64,000 nucleotides of DNA from Bryobacteraceae bacterium (lineage in GTDB: Bacteria; Acidobacteriota; Terriglobia; Bryobacterales; Bryobacteraceae), in the NCBI GenBank assembly GCA_035295865.1, contig DATGIH010000526.1, positions 14,066 through 78,065 on the forward strand, written 5' to 3'. Below the pieces are notes generated by a model, which ran no database searches, was not told the DNA's origin, and worked only from the letters and a program-made list of their open reading frames with translations. Each line of letters begins with the position of its first letter. Position 1 is the stretch's first letter. The position numbers and the translations under genes are program-made. Of the stretch, positions 7,203-33,518 are shown in pieces.

Positions 7203-8003
7203 CTACTTGATTGGCAGGGATGGGGCGGTGGATCCACCAACATCGGCGTAGGCTTCTTTGATCTTCACAACTTTGCTGTTAGCAAACGTTACAAAGGTGA
7301 TCTTGCCCGGGGGATCGCCGTAGACCCAATCTTCGGTTTCGGTGCCGTCTTTGTCGGTGCTGCGTTCTTTATGGCGCGGTTTGCCGAGCGCCATCACCAC
7401 CATTTCGCGATCCATCCCTTCGATCGCCTTGTTCTCTTTGATCGCCTTTTGGATCGGCTCCGGCAGCTTCTCCACGTAGTTTTCCGTGGCCGTTTCCTTT
7501 TCGAAATCGAGCACCGGTGCAAGGATCTTCTTGATGTCCGCGGCTTTCATCGGCGGAATCGGCTGATTAAATTTCAGCGCAATATTAGTGCCGCCGGGTG
7601 CATTCGAGTTTTGCTGCGTCGAGATGGGTCGCGTGGTGTTTCCCATCCCAACTTGGATGTGATCCTTCCAGCTTCCGTGGCCCTTCATGCCGCCGTTGAT
7701 CTCGAGCAGGATCTTGTCGTTTTCGATGGCCAGTTTCGTGATCTGCACCAGATCGCCCACGCGCGCCGCCGGACCGTTCTTTATGTTCGCCGCATCCCAC
7801 TTTTGCTTGTCCCATGTGCCGTTGCTATCGAACGGCAGCGGTTCTTTGGAACGCGGCAGCGGCGCTTTGACGGTGGCGTATTCAGAGAGCAGTCCGCGCA
7901 GAATTTCAATGCGATCGTCTTCGGTAAGTTTCTTGTCAGCGGCGGAAGCCAGCAGGCAGAACGCGGAAGGCAACAGGCAGTAGGCCGCAAATCTAGTTTT
8001 CAT
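7203..8003 (-). CDS. Secreted/lipoprotein-like protein with C-terminal SmpA/OmlA (BamE)-like segment
   Basis: I place the start at the ATG at 8001-8003 (MKTRFAAYCLLPSAFCLLASA signal). This ATG forms an ATGA overlap with the stop of the upstream CPBP gene. The C-terminal GMDREMVVMALGKPRHKE...DWVYG...FVTFANSKVVKI resembles BamE-like domains. The 474-aa ORF in the track is an Arg-rich artefactual extension. Confidence 0.6.
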   Translation of the reverse strand: MKTRFAAYCLLPSAFCLLASAADKKLTEDDRIEILRGLLSEYATVKAPLPRSKEPLPFDSNGTWDKQKWDAANIKNGPAARVGDLVQITKLAIENDKILLEINGGMKGHGSWKDHIQVGMGNTTRPISTQQNSNAPGGTNIALKFNQPIPPMKAADIKKILAPVLDFEKETATENYVEKLPEPIQKAIKENKAIEGMDREMVVMALGKPRHKERSTDKDGTETEDWVYGDPPGKITFVTFANSKVVKIKEAYADVGGSTAPSLPIK

Positions 8004-8857
8004 GGCGCCTCCCGGAGAAGGAACGCATCCTGATGTTGAATGGGGGCCTTCTGCAGAAAGAAGAACAGCGCCACCACAACCACGCTTGTGAGCCAACCGC
8101 CTTCGGGGCCATATTCGCCTCCGCTCCATAGTTCGCCAATTTTCCAGTGCAGGACGTACCCTGTAACTCCCATTGTAAACCCGCTGAGATTGGCGCCAAG
8201 CAGAGGTAACATCCAGTTCCAGCCGAAGTGCAGACCGATGGGCAGCCAGAGGTCGCCGCTCAACAGAAACGCGTAGCCCAGCGCGATTCCCCACAGCACG
8301 GTGTTGAATAGCGCGAGCCAGGTGAAATGCAGATTCTGGCTGTGCGCGAGTCCGAAAAGCACGCCCATCGGCAGAACCGTTGCGAACGGACCAATCGCTT
8401 TCACCAGCACTTGAAAACCGTAGCCGCGGAACAGCATCTCTTCGCCCACCGATCCGAACAATAGAACGATCGAAACCAGCAACAGGCTGGGCCAATGGAA
8501 ATGCGATTCCTTGGATGGCTCGAGATCGGCGGCGCGCACCAGGACCGGAGCGAGCAGAACGATCATCCCGGCGCCCGCGCCTCCCAGGATGCCTACCGCG
8601 AGATTGCGCCGTGACGCCGCCGTCCATCCGAGGCCGATATCGGCGAGCTGTCCGCGCTCATAGATTCTTAGGACCATGGCATTCGCAACGCCCGCCGCGG
8701 CGAACGTGCTGAGCGCCGCGATCACGAACGGCGAGCCCACCCAAATCATCGCCCAAGGAAAAATGTAGTAGCCCAGAATCGCGATCAGCGCGAAGACGCC
8801 GACGCGCAACAACGCGCCCAGATTTTTGTTCGTTGGATTGGTGGGGGCGGGCAGCAA
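8000..8857 (-). CDS. CPBP family intramembrane glutamic endopeptidase (CAAX protease-like)
   Basis: Polytopic membrane protein carrying the signature motifs GEEMLFRGYG and FGLAHS. Confidence 0.85.
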   Translation of the reverse strand: MLPAPTNPTNKNLGALLRVGVFALIAILGYYIFPWAMIWVGSPFVIAALSTFAAAGVANAMVLRIYERGQLADIGLGWTAASRRNLAVGILGGAGAGMIVLLAPVLVRAADLEPSKESHFHWPSLLLVSIVLLFGSVGEEMLFRGYGFQVLVKAIGPFATVLPMGVLFGLAHSQNLHFTWLALFNTVLWGIALGYAFLLSGDLWLPIGLHFGWNWMLPLLGANLSGFTMGVTGYVLHWKIGELWSGGEYGPEGGWLTSVVVVALFFFLQKAPIQHQDAFLLREAP

Positions 8858-29456: not shown

Positions 29457-30102
29457 ACAACACAAAGGCCTCTTCATCACATTCGAAGGCCCCGACGGCA
29501 GCGGTAAAAGCACCCAAGCTCGGTTGTTTGCCGAGCGGCTCCGGCGCGAAGGGCACACGGTGCTCGAGTCCGTGGAACCGGGTGGAACGCCGATCGGCCA
29601 GCAGATCCGGCGCATCTTGCTCGATCCCGCGAATCAGGAACTGCGCGCGGTGCCCGAACTGTTGCTGATGTTCGCCGCGCGGGCGCAAAACGTGGAGCAG
29701 TCCATCTTGCCTGCGCTGCGCGAGGGCCACATCGTCGTCTCGGATCGCTTCACGGATTCTTCCATCGCCTATCAGGGCGCGGCGCGAGGCCTCGGTTGGG
29801 ACACGGTGCTCGAAGTGGATCGCATCGCCTGCCATGGTTTAGTTCCCGATTTGACCCTCTGCATCGACATCGATACGGAAACCGGATTGGCTCGCGCGCA
29901 TTCCCGCAATCTCGGCAATGTCAGGCAAGAGGCTCGCATCGACGAGCAGGCCGTGGAGTTCCATCACAAAGTCCGTGATGCCTACCACGAGCTGGCCCGG
30001 TGCGAGCCGGATCGCGTGCGCCTAATCGATGGCAGCGCATCTCAAGAAGAGGTCGCGGCCAAAGTGTGGGATGTCGCCGCGCCCTTGCTAGCGAGCCTTT
30101 GA
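29443..30102 (+). CDS. tmk: dTMP (thymidylate) kinase
   Basis: FITFEGPDGSGKSTQ P-loop and DRF motif. TTG start overlapping the UDG 3' end. Confidence 0.92.
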   Translation: MSTIRQHKGLFITFEGPDGSGKSTQARLFAERLRREGHTVLESVEPGGTPIGQQIRRILLDPANQELRAVPELLLMFAARAQNVEQSILPALREGHIVVSDRFTDSSIAYQGAARGLGWDTVLEVDRIACHGLVPDLTLCIDIDTETGLARAHSRNLGNVRQEARIDEQAVEFHHKVRDAYHELARCEPDRVRLIDGSASQEEVAAKVWDVAAPLLASL

Positions 30103-30118
30103 CACGGGGCTGCCGTGT
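30102..30118 (+). terminator. Weak hairpin after tmk stop (possible terminator)
   Basis: ACACGG-ggctg-CCGTGT (6-bp stem) overlaps the TGA stop. It is followed by gttct, with no real T-run. Confidence 0.25.
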
Positions 30119-30120
30119 GT

Positions 30121-30196
30121 TCTAACATGGCCATGTGGATCTAACATGGCCATGTTAAGTTAACATGGCCATGTTAAACAAACATCGCCACCATGC
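30121..30196 (+). promoter_or_regulatory. Operator-like array: 3.5 tandem 19-bp units carrying the palindrome AACATGGCCATGTT
   Basis: Unit 1, 30121-30139: tctAACATGGCCATGTgga. Unit 2, 30140-30158: tctAACATGGCCATGTTaa. Unit 3, 30159-30177: gTTAACATGGCCATGTTAA, an 18-bp perfect palindrome. A degenerate fourth unit at 30178-30196 (AACATcGCCAcc) overlaps the ATG at 30193. Confidence 0.7.
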
Positions 30197-31347
30197 AAGC
30201 TATATCCAGCTCCGATTACCGGGGCATTCTTGCCAACCTCTTTCAAAAAAGGGGCTGGCGGATTCTCAGTCTTCCTGCTGCCGCGGCCAACGGTGCGAAC
30301 CTGGCCGTCCAGGCCGGCAAAAATAAGTACATCGTTCAAATCAGGTCGGCCTCGGAGGGCCGCCGCGACCGTCTGATCTCTGTGCTCTCACAAGCTGTTC
30401 TCGAAGCTCAGTCGTCCGCCCGCCGCTTTCCCTCGTCCATCACCCCCCTGGCAGTGGTTGCCTCCAAGCGCGTGCCAGAATCGGTCGCGGATCAGCTCCA
30501 AGCGTTCGTGGAACAGAACGCTCCGGGCGTGGCTGTCGGAGTCATCGATTCCAGCGGGTTTCGCTCCTTTCGTGGCGCTGGCCTCGAACCGCTAAACGCA
30601 TCTCCCGCGCGCCTTCCTCGGAAGCAACCGAACTCGCCTCAACCCCTGGCCAATCTGTTCTCCGATCTAAACCAATGGATGCTAAAAATCCTTCTCGGTC
30701 AGAGTCTGCCCGAAAACCTGATTCGCGTCCCGCGGCAGCCGGTCGAAAATGCATCGCAACTGGCTGAAGCTGCCGAAGTGTCGGGCATGAGCGGGTCGCG
30801 ATTCGTAAACCAACTCGCGGCGCGCGGATTCTTGGATGAGAATGCGACTGAACTCAAGCTCGTCCGTCTCGAAGAACTGCTGGACCTGTGGGCTGCGGAC
30901 AAGCGGACTGCCATAAATGAAATACCGGCTCGTTGGATCATCAAGGCCGGACCGGATCAATTACGCGATGCCGTCCGGCGATACAGCTCGAAAGCGATTC
31001 GGAACCAGCCTCAATGCTGTTTGGGCCTCTTCGCCGCCGCCGATGTGCTGGGGCTCGGATTCGTTCGTGGAGCCCTGCCGCATCTTTATCTGGAACGCAT
31101 GACGCTCGATGCGATGAACCGGCTCGGCCTCGACTTCAGCAAGTCCAACCGTCCCGCCGACGTGATGGTGCGCATTCCTAGAAATCCGCAAGCCATCTTT
31201 CGCGCATCCGTGCAACGCGAAGGAATCTCGGTATCGGACGTACTGCAGATATGGCTCGATGTTTCGGCGCATCCCGGCCGGGGACGTGAACAGGCTCGTG
31301 AAATACGCCGCCGTGCGTTGAGCCCGTTGTTTAAAAAACGCAGATGA
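30193..31347 (+). CDS. AbiEi-like wHTH regulator/antitoxin candidate with extra N-terminal endonuclease-fold-like module
   Basis: Central HTH-like segment ASQLAEAAEVSGMSGSRFVNQLAARGFL. The C-terminal part (LGLFAAADVLGLGF..., PHLYLERMTLDAMNRLGL, ISVSDVLQIWLDVSAHPGRGREQAREI) resembles AbiEi C-domains. The N-terminal YRGILANLFQKRGWRI...ANLAV...YIVQIRSAS looks like a degenerate Mrr-type core. No SD upstream. Confidence 0.5.
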   Translation: MQAISSSDYRGILANLFQKRGWRILSLPAAAANGANLAVQAGKNKYIVQIRSASEGRRDRLISVLSQAVLEAQSSARRFPSSITPLAVVASKRVPESVADQLQAFVEQNAPGVAVGVIDSSGFRSFRGAGLEPLNASPARLPRKQPNSPQPLANLFSDLNQWMLKILLGQSLPENLIRVPRQPVENASQLAEAAEVSGMSGSRFVNQLAARGFLDENATELKLVRLEELLDLWAADKRTAINEIPARWIIKAGPDQLRDAVRRYSSKAIRNQPQCCLGLFAAADVLGLGFVRGALPHLYLERMTLDAMNRLGLDFSKSNRPADVMVRIPRNPQAIFRASVQREGISVSDVLQIWLDVSAHPGRGREQAREIRRRALSPLFKKRR

Positions 31348-32150
31348 CCGCAGCCAATCCATTCGCGCGTCTGCTGATGGCGCTCCAACCCTGGCTCCCC
31401 CACATCGTGATCGTGGGTGGCTGGGCGCACCAACTCTATCGACTCCATCCGCATGCACAATCGTTGAACTATCCGCCACTGAGTACCTTGGACACGGACA
31501 TCGCCCTTCCTCAGCGCACTCCCATGGGAGAGGAGGACATCCGTTCCCGTCTGCTCGGCCACGGCTTCTTCGAAGAATTCATGGGCGAGGACCACCCGCC
31601 CGCCACTCACTATCACTTGGGAGGCGACTCTTCCGGCTTCTACGCGGAGTTCCTCACTCCGCTTATCGGCAGCGAACTCGATCGCAGCAAGAAACGCAAA
31701 GCGACGGCGCGAATCGCCGGTGTTGCTTCGCAGCGGCTCCGCTTCATCGAGCTTTTACTGGATCAGCCGTGGTCCATCGGCTTCGAGCAAAGCAGTTTCA
31801 GAACTTCGGTTCAGATTGCCAACCCGGTCGCCTTCATCGCGCAGAAAGTTCTCATCCATGGAAAACGTGCGCGCCCGGACAGAGTCAAGGACATCCTCTA
31901 TATCCACGACACGCTCGAAGTCTTCGGTGCACGGCTGCCCGATCTCCACGAGTTGTGGCGGACCGCGGTGGCTCCGAAACTGCAGACCAGCAGTGCCCGC
32001 AAAGTCCTAGCCGCACCAAAGGAGCTTTTCCCGGAAGTGACCGATGACATTCGGAGTGCGGCGGAGATTTCGGTGGAGCGCGCGCTTTCGCCGGAGGAAA
32101 TCAGAGCCGCATGCCACTACGGCCTGTCGAGAATCTTCACGAGGAACTAA
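31344..32150 (+). CDS. Minimal nucleotidyltransferase-fold protein (AbiEii/DUF1814- or GSU2403-like toxin candidate)
   Basis: ATGA overlap with the upstream gene. NTase motifs: IVIVGGWAHQLY (hGG-x-A), TLDTDIAL (D-x-D), and AQKVLIHGKRARPDRVKDILYIHD (K...R...KD..D). Confidence 0.55.
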   Translation: MTAANPFARLLMALQPWLPHIVIVGGWAHQLYRLHPHAQSLNYPPLSTLDTDIALPQRTPMGEEDIRSRLLGHGFFEEFMGEDHPPATHYHLGGDSSGFYAEFLTPLIGSELDRSKKRKATARIAGVASQRLRFIELLLDQPWSIGFEQSSFRTSVQIANPVAFIAQKVLIHGKRARPDRVKDILYIHDTLEVFGARLPDLHELWRTAVAPKLQTSSARKVLAAPKELFPEVTDDIRSAAEISVERALSPEEIRAACHYGLSRIFTRN

Positions 32151-32592
32151 ATCGCGAAACGATGAAGAGCCCGCCGCCGATCGCGATGGCGTCTTCGATC
32201 AGCGCCACCGTGATATCGGGAAGCTTCCCCTTCGCTACGATGCGGCGCCTCGCCTGATATCCGCCAAACGTGCCGATCAGTGCTCCAACGACGCCTGCAA
32301 TGGCACCCGGCCAGGCGCTGAGCGCGAAGCCCGTTAGCCCGCCCATAATCAGCCGGTCAATCAAGGGACCCGGCTTGGTTCGCGCTCCAATCCAGGATTG
32401 TTTGTCCAGCACTAACTCAACCAGCGCAAGACCGGTAGAGATGTAGACCGCCAGGATTGTTCCAAGAAACGCGAGTTTCGTATCGCCCAGTGGTATCCAA
32501 CCCAGAAATCCCGCCCAGCACACAAGGGCGGGAGCGGTGAAAGATCGAAGACCGGCGACGATCCCAATAGCGAACGCGAGCAGCAAGGGCAT
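32137..32592 (-). CDS. DUF4126-like membrane protein
   Basis: Four hydrophobic helices. The N-terminal IVAGLRSFTAPALV pattern fits my recollection of DUF4126. It lies 11 nt downstream of the K+ channel gene. Confidence 0.5.
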   Translation of the reverse strand: MPLLLAFAIGIVAGLRSFTAPALVCWAGFLGWIPLGDTKLAFLGTILAVYISTGLALVELVLDKQSWIGARTKPGPLIDRLIMGGLTGFALSAWPGAIAGVVGALIGTFGGYQARRRIVAKGKLPDITVALIEDAIAIGGGLFIVSRFSSS

Positions 32593-32603
32593 GCGCTGTT
32601 AGC

Positions 32604-33518
32604 TTAACTCACCACTTTCAACTCATCAATCCGGTTCACATCCAGAATCAGATCCCCGGCTGGATCTACACTAAACGCGGGCTGAAATTTCGCTCCCCAC
32701 ACAAACTGATCGTAGGTGTAGGAATATTGCGCGTGAACCGTTTGGCTGAAGGTATCGTCGAAGCCTTTGATCAGCACCAGGATCTCGGTGCTGGCTTTTT
32801 CCAGGTCCTCTGCCGTTTTTCCGTAAAAAGGACTCCTTTCGTCGATCGGATGGACGATGGTCCATGTCAGCGGGAAAAAATAGATATGCCGCCGCTCCAG
32901 CGGAAGATCGATGAAGTCGCGCTTCAGCTGCCCGGAAGCCATATCCACGGTCATCAGCAAAACCCGAGCCTCCAGATCCATCAGGACATTGCTACGGGCA
33001 TTTGTGATGCGGAACTGCAGGCTGCTTCCATCCTGATAAGGCGCAATCAGGAGATGATTGCTGAACAGAATGCGCGCTGAGGGCCGCGAAAATCGCCCAT
33101 AGAGCAGTCCAGTGGCAATCGCAAATACCATCAAGCCGGTCGCCGCTTCGAGTGCGGCCACCAGATTGGTCGCGACGCCTCGAGGAAAAATATTCCCGTA
33201 CCCCACTGTCGTCAACGTATGAATGCTGAAGAAAAACGCATTGACAAACGGTGCCATCTCCGGTTCCAGGCCCTGCAAATGTTCGATTCCGAGCATCATG
33301 TAAATGCCGGCGAACACCATGTTGATACACAAGAATCCAGTGGCGACCACCGCTAAAAAGCGCGGCCACGTGGTATCGATCAGCGCCAGGTACAGATTGA
33401 CGTCGCGCAGGTGCGTTCCCTTGCGGCGGACATTGAACGTGCCATCCGGATTGATGGCCCGGCGCAGCGCACCGCCAAATTGCGTAGTTAAACCTGGATC
33501 GAAAGATTCCTTTTTCAT
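32604..33518 (-). CDS. Inward-rectifier-type (KirBac-like) potassium channel
   Basis: I place the start at the ATG at 33516-33518 (MKKESFDPGL...). Two TM helices flank a pore helix with the selectivity filter TLTTVGYGN. The C-terminal beta-rich cytoplasmic domain is typical of Kir. The longer ORF in the track is an Arg-rich extension that overlaps the kinase gene. Confidence 0.85.
   Translation of the reverse strand: MKKESFDPGLTTQFGGALRRAINPDGTFNVRRKGTHLRDVNLYLALIDTTWPRFLAVVATGFLCINMVFAGIYMMLGIEHLQGLEPEMAPFVNAFFFSIHTLTTVGYGNIFPRGVATNLVAALEAATGLMVFAIATGLLYGRFSRPSARILFSNHLLIAPYQDGSSLQFRITNARSNVLMDLEARVLLMTVDMASGQLKRDFIDLPLERRHIYFFPLTWTIVHPIDERSPFYGKTAEDLEKASTEILVLIKGFDDTFSQTVHAQYSYTYDQFVWGAKFQPAFSVDPAGDLILDVNRIDELKVVS

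Follow-up and report, generated by a model that had tools for sequence, protein, structure and literature searches.

We analyzed a two-gene locus within a 64,000-nucleotide stretch of DNA from a Bryobacteraceae bacterium (GenBank assembly GCA_035295865.1, contig DATGIH010000526.1, positions 14,066 to 78,065 of the forward strand). This whole stretch is called the window, and its own numbering is used throughout. The locus consists of gene A, which encodes a three-domain regulator, and gene B, which encodes a predicted nucleotidyltransferase (NTase), behind a promoter and an array of palindromes. We propose that the region is probably a self-contained, horizontally mobile, and autoregulated two-gene cassette (~2.05 kb) in the same NTase toxin–antitoxin class as AbiE and MenAT. 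Its features are as follows.

30088–30091, no strand: left cassette boundary CTAG, where homology to empty tmk-DUF4126 sites stops.
30099–30128, plus strand: sigma-70-like promoter, TTGACA-18 nt-TAACAT, 10 of 12 matches, the sole promoter-like site called in 29800–32700.
30123–30138, no strand: predicted operator palindrome O1, TAACATGGCCATGTGG, overlapping the −10 box.
30142–30157, no strand: predicted operator palindrome O2, TAACATGGCCATGTTA, a perfect 16-bp palindrome kept in relatives.
30161–30176, no strand: predicted operator palindrome O3, TAACATGGCCATGTTA, from the motif search; a fourth, degenerate copy at ~30180–30190 abuts the ATG.
30193–31347, plus strand: gene A, 384-amino-acid (aa) three-domain regulator and putative antitoxin, from the open reading frame (ORF) call, homologs, and an AlphaFold (AF2) model.
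30193–30597, plus strand: A residues 1–135, predicted PD-(D/E)xK (Mrr_cat/Hjc-like) fold with its triad replaced by N36, Q49, and R51, from PF04471/PF01870 matches of relatives and Foldseek.
30658–30897, plus strand: A residues ~156–235, winged helix-turn-helix (wHTH), presumed to bind the operator, from secondary structure, Pfam matches of relatives, and Foldseek.
30898–31344, plus strand: A residues 236–384, alpha/beta C-domain, presumed to neutralize the toxin, from invariant columns and weak AbiEi_2 matches.
31344–32150, plus strand: gene B, 268-aa PF12281 (GSU2403-family) NTase and putative toxin, from Pfam, AF2, Foldseek, and invariant residues.
32147–32150, no strand: right cassette boundary CTAA, which includes the B stop codon and where homology to empty sites resumes.

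Protein B belongs to the PF12281 NTases. Its predicted active site is complete, and its modeled fold and motifs resemble those of MenT and AbiEii. In Pfam scans reported up to E = 1, B matched NTP_transf_8 (PF12281) over model positions 6–216 of 218 with 78.3 bits (E = 1.1e-21), where the gathering cut-off is 26.3 bits. Homologs of B number more than 1,299, and the named ones are called 'GSU2403 family nucleotidyltransferase fold protein' in NCBI naming. The AF2 model, built from 120 homologs, has a predicted local distance difference test score (pLDDT) of 90.9 and a predicted template modeling score of 0.89. Its top Foldseek matches in the Protein Data Bank (PDB) are MenT1 (8rr5/8an5; E 6e-4 to 9e-4, probability 1.0), and next comes TglT/MenT3 (6j7r; E 6e-3, TMq 0.45), with antibiotic NTases and terminal uridylyltransferases behind them. 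An initial annotation of this DNA, made from the letters alone, had called B a minimal NTase, and both the family score and the fold bear this out.

The predicted catalytic motifs of B are laid out as G25-G26, T48-x-D50-x-D52, E102, K168-x6-R175, and D183. All of these residues are invariant in 120 close homologs and unchanged at 39–41% identity in Burkholderia, Paraburkholderia, and viral-contig proteins from outside the phylum, and the motifs first quoted for B (hGG-x-A, D-x-D, and K...R...KD..D) are real and fall on these positions. AbiEii is described by motifs I–II (hG[GS]...DhD), motif III (K-x6-R), and a motif IV Asp, and mutating its G49, D67, D69, K173, R180, or D192 abolishes toxicity (PMC3985639). 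B carries the corresponding GG, DxD, K-x6-R, and downstream Asp, the exceptions being the length of the first spacer and the motif-II Arg. T48, the Thr two residues ahead of the first Asp, aligns with MenT1 T39, MenT3 S78, and AbiEii T65, residues that are auto-phosphorylated on antitoxin binding (PMC11375011; bioRxiv 10.64898/2026.01.19.700257). One intact B homolog was hidden by its annotation: at locus L006, positions 7236–8018, the public record gives a 157-aa ORF on the opposite strand, and tblastn recovers an open 269-aa ORF with 60% identity to B, so the annotated ORF looks like a gene-calling error in the source.

The antibiotic NTases in the Foldseek list bring up a different role, in which B would nucleotidylylate a small molecule as part of a regulated resistance or metabolic gene and A would be a ligand-responsive repressor. 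ANT(2'')-Ia (5kqj, E 7.7e-3) and LinB are both among the fold matches of B, and some A homologs are named 'RpiR family transcriptional regulator' in RefSeq. However, the MenT toxins outrank the antibiotic NTases, and B has the DUF1814-type K-x6-R together with the T-x-D-x-D phospho-acceptor pattern. B is also often pseudogenized with A retained, as described below, and a repressor that senses metabolites would not be expected to have a nuclease fold fused to it. We consider a small-molecule enzyme improbable on these grounds.

Upstream of gene A we identify an operator-like array that the initial annotation does not contain. Three copies of AACATGGCCATGTT lie at a 19-nt period in 30123–30176, between the −10 region and the start of gene A, with the general form TAACATGGCCATGT(T/G)(A/G). 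The 14-nt core occurs in these three copies and nowhere else in the 64 kb (0.22 copies expected), and three copies were seen in 0 of 100 shuffles. The arrangement recurs with the gene: a TTGACA box at the matching relative position is found upstream of A homologs in unrelated contexts, followed by 2–4 palindromes at an 18–19-nt period up to the ATG. At least one copy of the strict motif precedes A in 75 of 86 loci and at least two in 35 of 86, with degenerate copies in most of the others. In Paraburkholderia phenoliruptrix, a member of another phylum whose protein is 30% identical, TAACATGGCCGTGTTA is present three times upstream of A, and Burkholderia contaminans has the variant TAACATGTGCATGTTA. 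This conservation of the array from Acidobacteriota to Paraburkholderia speaks strongly, on comparative grounds, for a wHTH and operator that are cognate, and hence for predicted autoregulation of the operon by A. We infer that A binds the palindromes and represses the operon.

Protein A belongs to a large family, with more than 2,389 matches in the clustered database and 970 clusters at 50% identity, and nearly all clusters are 370–410 aa long and align end to end. The window protein itself has no match in Pfam, PADLOC, or NCBIfam (E up to 1) or among PDB sequences, and annotators have labeled its homologs 'hypothetical', 'restriction endonuclease', 'Holliday junction resolvase', or 'RpiR family transcriptional regulator'. 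In the AF2 model (pLDDT 85.8; disordered linker at residues 141–152), a 135-residue nuclease fold is followed by a wHTH and an alpha/beta C-domain, the last two in AbiEi order. The initial annotation had regarded this three-part protein as atypically long; in every locus examined, including those on Burkholderia plasmids, the same architecture is the standard partner of the NTase. Representatives of ~235 aa were considered as true two-domain (HTH plus C-domain) forms and rejected, as all start at the conserved internal Met163, and they look like truncated gene calls. In a metagenomic protein of 1065 aa (P0326), a complete A-type protein (~691–1057) follows a NERD domain (47–142) and an Eco57I-type N6-adenine methylase (428–581), a fusion that suggests a tie between the A family and DNA modification or restriction.

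The N-terminal domain of A is predicted to have a PD-(D/E)xK fold that is catalytically dead in the window copy, since N36, Q49, and R51 replace D...ExK. Its modeled core is alpha-beta-beta-beta-alpha-beta, and in the family consensus strand 2 carries the D and strand 3 the ExK. Most close relatives match Mrr_cat (PF04471) or Hjc (PF01870), and Foldseek returns XisH (2okf, the best at E 4.6e-3), Hjc (1gef), PspGI, and McrC for this domain with probabilities of 0.57–1.0. Of 110 relatives compared, 105 have D at column 36 and 109 have K at column 51; at column 49, 75 have E and 23 have Q. The window protein is the sole one with R51. The initial annotation had recognized an Mrr-type core with D and K replaced by N and R, which both the alignment with D...ExK and the structural matches to XisH, Hjc, and PspGI bear out, although it overlooked the change from E to Q.

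Its further proposal, that the regulator had acquired an already inactivated nuclease, is at odds with the D...ExK consensus of the family. The full D-E-K triad is kept in only 43 of 92 diverse representatives and is broken in 5 of the 11 proteins of the tmk-linked clade (the window's own counted), so the nuclease active site appears to erode repeatedly. The complete N-Q-R replacement is confined to the window copy. Within the clade, identity is 64–71% in the N-domain, 74–80% in the HTH, and 72–80% in the C-domain, with the N-domain evolving fastest. Unlike the triad, a G56-R57-x-D59 motif right after the ExK strand (window 30358–30369) is invariant even in 30%-identical Burkholderia proteins. 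The comparison points to a secondary and recurrent loss of the triad within a D...ExK family, and we regard the domain as a probable accessory module of the A family that, in the window copy, would serve at most as a binding or oligomerization scaffold.

The combination of an NTase with a nuclease-domain protein also invites comparison with CBASS, in which case B would make a nucleotide messenger on infection and A would be the effector, its C-domain sensing the messenger and its nuclease being activated. Weak Foldseek matches of A to the cyclic-oligoadenylate-activated Cdn1 and Card1 (E ~0.3) fit this reading. Yet no cGAS/DncV-type structure is among the matches listed for B, PADLOC CBASS models are unmatched, and the DNA-binding HTH of A with its cognate operator fits a repressor. 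The triad of the presumed effector is often lost, and it is dead in the window copy while the pair is otherwise intact. A CBASS-like pair therefore seems highly improbable to us.

The middle domain of A is a predicted wHTH, in agreement with its first description as wHTH-like. Pfam matches among 92 relatives are to HTH_Crp_2 (33), HTH_IclR (27), and MarR (18), Foldseek returns IclR and MarR regulators, and the AF2 secondary structure places its helices at residues 187–194 and 198–210. The C-domain is the most constrained part of A and holds four of the six residues that are invariant across the diverse family (D349, Q352, R363, and G364). AbiEi_2 (PF09952) is the one Pfam family with more than a single match among excised C-domains, namely 2 of 45 (best E 1.2e-3), and 2 of 92 full-length relatives match it as well (best E 1.2e-4). 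A resemblance of the C-terminus to AbiEi, which had been noted at the outset, thus receives weak support from relatives and none from the window protein, which is unmatched. Solved AbiEi structures are absent from the sequence and family-profile searches with A, and AbiEi 6y8q is absent among the 50 Foldseek matches listed for the whole A model, which recovered the nuclease and HTH domains and not the C-domain.

The association of the two genes was assessed in a census of 83 non-redundant loci collected with A as the query. B directly follows A in 73 loci, intact in 56 and disrupted in 17; it is absent in 8, and 2 loci end at a contig edge. In the window, ATGA at 31344–31347 is shared by the start and stop of two genes on the same strand, as the initial annotation had reported, and such a 4-nt overlap is also the junction usually seen across the loci. 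In about 30% of loci B is damaged or missing while A is full-length, a figure that is biased by the use of A as query and in which some disrupted B genes may be assembly errors of metagenome-assembled genomes. Preferential decay of B is the pattern typical of toxins. An alternative partner gene for loci without B was sought and rejected, as the genes after A are heterogeneous and often belong to mobile elements. They include an IS630-type transposase (L077 5262–6173), an HTH/HipA-like pair (L060 5463–7108), a group II intron reverse transcriptase (L071 6748–8316, in Paludibaculum fermentans), and an AAA ATPase.

This census also bears on a reversal of roles after the manner of HEPN/MNT (HepT/MntA), in which the A nuclease would be the toxin and B an antitoxin that nucleotidylylates it. 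A has a predicted PD-(D/E)xK fold whose triad is intact in many relatives, and NTase-fold antitoxins that modify their own toxin are known (PMC7641770). However, A with an intact D-E-K triad persists in 14 of the 25 loci in which B is disrupted or absent, which speaks against A as a toxin dependent on B. The triad is moreover degenerate in about half of the diverse A family and fully dead here, where B is intact. A bears the hallmarks of an antitoxin (first gene, HTH, upstream operator array), and the closest folds of B are the toxins MenT1 and MenT3, not MntA. We judge the reversed assignment to be distinctly improbable and retain A as the putative antitoxin and B as the putative toxin.

Relatives of A occur in at least 366 species-representative genomes, and the best 80 of these at least 366 are almost all Acidobacteriota (Bryobacterales, Terriglobia). 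The cultured Paludibaculum fermentans has A only, and Bryobacterales bacterium F-183 has an intact pair. A is followed by B in all six Burkholderia/Paraburkholderia megaplasmid records, with gene sizes and overlap unchanged; on the Burkholderia megaplasmids its neighbors are IS66/IS110 transposases, a RES-family toxin gene, a phospholipase D gene, and H-NS. The pair is also present on one IMG/VR viral contig.

In the window, gene A is preceded in order by gmk, rpoZ, coaBC, a UDG-family gene, and tmk (which ends at 30102), with a tmk-A spacer of 90 nt, and B is followed by a convergent DUF4126 membrane-protein gene (32137–32592, minus strand). The gene map agrees in this with the initial annotation, which had placed the pair between tmk and a convergent membrane-protein gene. 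The 3' ends of B and the DUF4126 gene overlap by 14 nt in the window (32137–32150) and by 4 nt in L001. The same gmk-rpoZ-coaBC-UDG-tmk-A-B-DUF4126 synteny is seen in occupied-site relatives whose A proteins are 71–73% identical (76% over the contig part in L014). In the closest Tmk relatives found by a Tmk scan (L088, 88%; L087, 87%; L090, 83%), tmk abuts the convergent DUF4126 gene and the pair is missing, and A-B is likewise absent from all 55 additional tmk loci whose downstream sequence is long enough. The pair is a presence/absence polymorphism, and its insertion at the tmk-DUF4126 junction is restricted to this lineage.

We located the insert by boundary alignment of the occupied window, L001, and L007 with the empty L087, L088, and L090. 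The ~2.05 kb insert runs from 30092, 7 nt before the −35 box, to the B stop codon, with CTAR on both sides. Beyond this tetranucleotide, no att-like repeats were found around the window copy. The tmk stop codon TGA (30100–30102) lies inside the −35 TTGACA box (30099–30104), which implies that the C-terminal tail of Tmk was rewritten by the insertion. In the empty site of L088, Tmk is 7 codons longer and overlaps the 3' end of DUF4126. Two elements of the initial annotation change in this light. The pair is not simply appended to a housekeeping super-operon, as it has its own promoter and the tmk-DUF4126 junction is empty in the closest Tmk relatives, and the same empty sites speak against its being old core DNA. 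The GC content of the pair (0.58–0.60) is indeed similar to that of its flanks, but this does not argue against insertion, since a match is expected for exchange among related Acidobacteriota. No paralogs of A or B and no tRNA genes were found in the 64-kb window.

Elsewhere, A-B is the sole cargo of 2.3–2.9 kb islets between 43–68-nt tRNA-derived direct repeats at four tRNA genes, listed here with the coordinates of each locus.

L004 5712–8708 and L012 3720–6131: tRNA-Pro(GGG) islets, direct repeats of the tRNA.
L025 3532–6150: tRNA-Lys(TTT) islet, direct repeats of the tRNA.
L047 3487–6358: tRNA-Met(CAT) islet, 5' half, direct repeats of the tRNA.
L064 3281–6254: tRNA-Glu(CTC) islet, direct repeats of the tRNA.

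No integrase-family gene was called in or beside the tRNA-Pro islets with listed genes, and the other islets hold room for A and B only. Common element ends were sought in the tRNA islets and rejected. Leaders and trailers are unrelated except for the promoter/operator, from which it follows that the conserved mobile unit is the promoter-to-stop cassette. The islets may be decayed islands that keep only an addictive module or units mobilized in cis, and a minimal mobile unit, the promoter-to-stop cassette, that repeatedly lands in tRNA genes is one possibility.

Several individual loci add to this picture. The L025 islet has a partial 3' copy upstream of the tRNA with a poor acceptor stem, a geometry unlike that of classical integration. 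In L004, the interval from B to the tRNA-Pro gene contains a 22-nt repeat, CGAATTCTGAGGATTGTGAGAA, five times (8277–8498); these copies may be leftover arm-type recombinase sites. The direct repeat on either side of the pair in L016 (851–3211) spans at least 68 nt and stays near-identical over ~125 nt; it is coding-like and not tRNA-derived, with gaps of 98 nt and 88 nt between the repeats and the pair. In L081, thirteen head-to-tail tRNA genes (10–1346) lie ~2.6 kb upstream of an A-B pair.

A cassette that mobilizes itself, with the nuclease/HTH of A driving insertion and excision in an XisH-like or homing-like manner and B carried as cargo, would account for the bare promoter-to-stop insert with CTAR at both ends and for the islets at several tRNA genes that lack an integrase and carry nothing but the pair. 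XisH, an excision-controlling factor, is also the best structural match of the A N-domain (2okf). That match, however, is a generic PD-(D/E)xK fold match, and the triad is often degenerate in the family; the islets share no element ends, their leaders and trailers being unrelated apart from the promoter/operator, and repeat geometry differs among them. Of all the readings weighed here we find this one the least probable.

We assign the pair to the AbiE/MenAT class because overlapping genes, an HTH and operator in A, an NTase in B, mobility, and preferential decay of B come together in it, and we regard each of the four alternatives above as less likely. The hallmarks of toxin–antitoxin systems seen here are a compact overlapping pair, its own promoter and predicted operators, and an accessory, mobile distribution (empty sites, islets, plasmids). 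The view of the pair as a diverged AbiE/GSU2403-type module, put forward in the initial annotation, agrees with the PF12281 NTase and its MenT/AbiEii-like predicted fold and motifs. Of the family models it had named for comparison, GSU2403/PF12281 matches and the AbiEii/DUF1814 and AbiEi models do not.

A number of observations weigh against this assignment. B has no match to the AbiEii/DUF1814 (PF08843) Pfam model at E up to 1, and neither protein matches any PADLOC or NCBIfam model, AbiE models included. By sequence, B and B-family profiles match no solved MenT/AbiEii chain. In Foldseek, the probability of the MenT1/MenT3 matches is ~1.0, but E-values reach only 6e-4 to 6e-3 and TM-scores are modest (0.31–0.52). 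The GG-to-DxD spacer of B has 23 residues versus 15 in AbiEii, and the motif-II Arg of AbiEii is not evident in B. The link of A to AbiEi is marginal, its faint signal being located in the C-domain, and the decay statistic carries the bias described above. A full-text literature search found no toxicity, antitoxicity, DNA-binding, or NTase assay of any PF12281 member and no published study of GSU2403, PF12281, or NTP_transf_8 proteins. The class is known, while the PF12281 NTase family and its three-domain partner A are uncharacterized in the searchable literature.

By analogy with the characterized members of the class, A would bind the palindromes through its wHTH and repress the operon, and its C-domain would contact B and keep it inactive. 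Following the examples of MenA1-MenT1, MenA3-MenT3, and AbiEi-AbiEii, B would probably be kept inactive by sequestration, by an induced auto-phosphorylation at T48, or by both. Free B would add nucleotides to the 3' end of RNA, most likely at tRNA acceptor stems, leading to arrest of translation and growth. The outcome could be stabilization of the carrier element or abortion of phage infection.

It is conceivable, though unlikely, that the PD-(D/E)xK domain on the antitoxin is a DNA sensor or first-line effector that couples recognition of foreign (modified or phage) DNA to release of the NTase toxin. Were this so, the family would form a new class of two-stage defense, with restriction-like sensing wired to a MenT-like translation toxin, and dead copies such as that of the window would keep only a sensing or addiction function. 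The question raised by the family as a whole is why an antitoxin carries a repeatedly inactivated nuclease domain.

PF12281 NTases have so far been named by fold only, and their constant partner A has no Pfam, NCBIfam, or PADLOC model. Linking the pair to the AbiE/MenAT class allows relatives to be annotated in concrete and testable terms in at least 366 species-level genomes, which among the genomes examined are mostly soil Acidobacteriota. The new points are the conserved phospho-acceptor Thr, an operator kept from Acidobacteriota to Betaproteobacteria, the mobility of the pair, and the nuclease-fold extension on the putative antitoxin. Together these points would extend the model of antitoxin-induced auto-phosphorylation to a new, putative NTase toxin family.

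Comparison with known systems places the locus between several of them. The N-domain of A resembles Mrr_cat/Hjc nucleases in its alpha-beta-beta-beta-alpha-beta core, its family-consensus D...ExK, and its fold matches to Hjc, XisH, and PspGI. It differs from them in that all three catalytic residues of the window protein are replaced (N, Q, R) and in that the domain is fused to a repressor/antitoxin body and not to a DNA-recognition or ATPase module. AbiEi_2/COG4861-type antitoxins (PF09952) partner COG4849 DUF1814 NTases and are encoded upstream of them (PMC3985639). A is likewise a regulator upstream of an NTase, and excised C-domains of 2 of 45 relatives match PF09952 (E 1.2e-3), a likeness too weak for membership, as the window protein is unmatched at E up to 1.

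MenT1 (Rv0078A) and MenT3 (Rv1045) of the Mycobacterium tuberculosis MenAT systems are tRNA acceptor-stem nucleotidyltransferase toxins. No other structures match B better (8rr5, 8an5, 6j7r), and B shares with these toxins a Ser/Thr two residues before the catalytic Asp, which in MenT is auto-phosphorylated on antitoxin binding (PMC11375011). There is no detectable sequence similarity, and TM-scores reach only 0.31–0.52. MenA antitoxins are structurally diverse, and, unlike A, none is described with a nuclease domain in the AbiE/MenAT literature cited here.

AbiE, known from Lactococcus lactis and Streptococcus agalactiae, pairs a COG5340 antitoxin with a DUF1814/COG2253 NTase toxin (PMC3985639). 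In contrast to AbiE, B falls in PF12281 and not in PF08843, with AbiEii Pfam and PADLOC AbiE models unmatched, and its GG-to-DxD spacer has 23 residues where AbiEii has 15. AbiEi is about half as large as A, which has an additional PD-(D/E)xK domain before the wHTH and no COG5340-type Pfam match, and in place of the two 23-bp inverted repeats of AbiE there are 3–4 tandem 16-bp palindromes at an 18–19-nt period. What the two systems share is a bicistronic operon in which the regulator gene precedes the NTase gene, a first protein built of a wHTH and a C-domain with inverted repeats in its own promoter, an NTase whose GG, T-x-D-x-D, and K-x6-R motifs precede an acidic residue, and a location on mobile elements.

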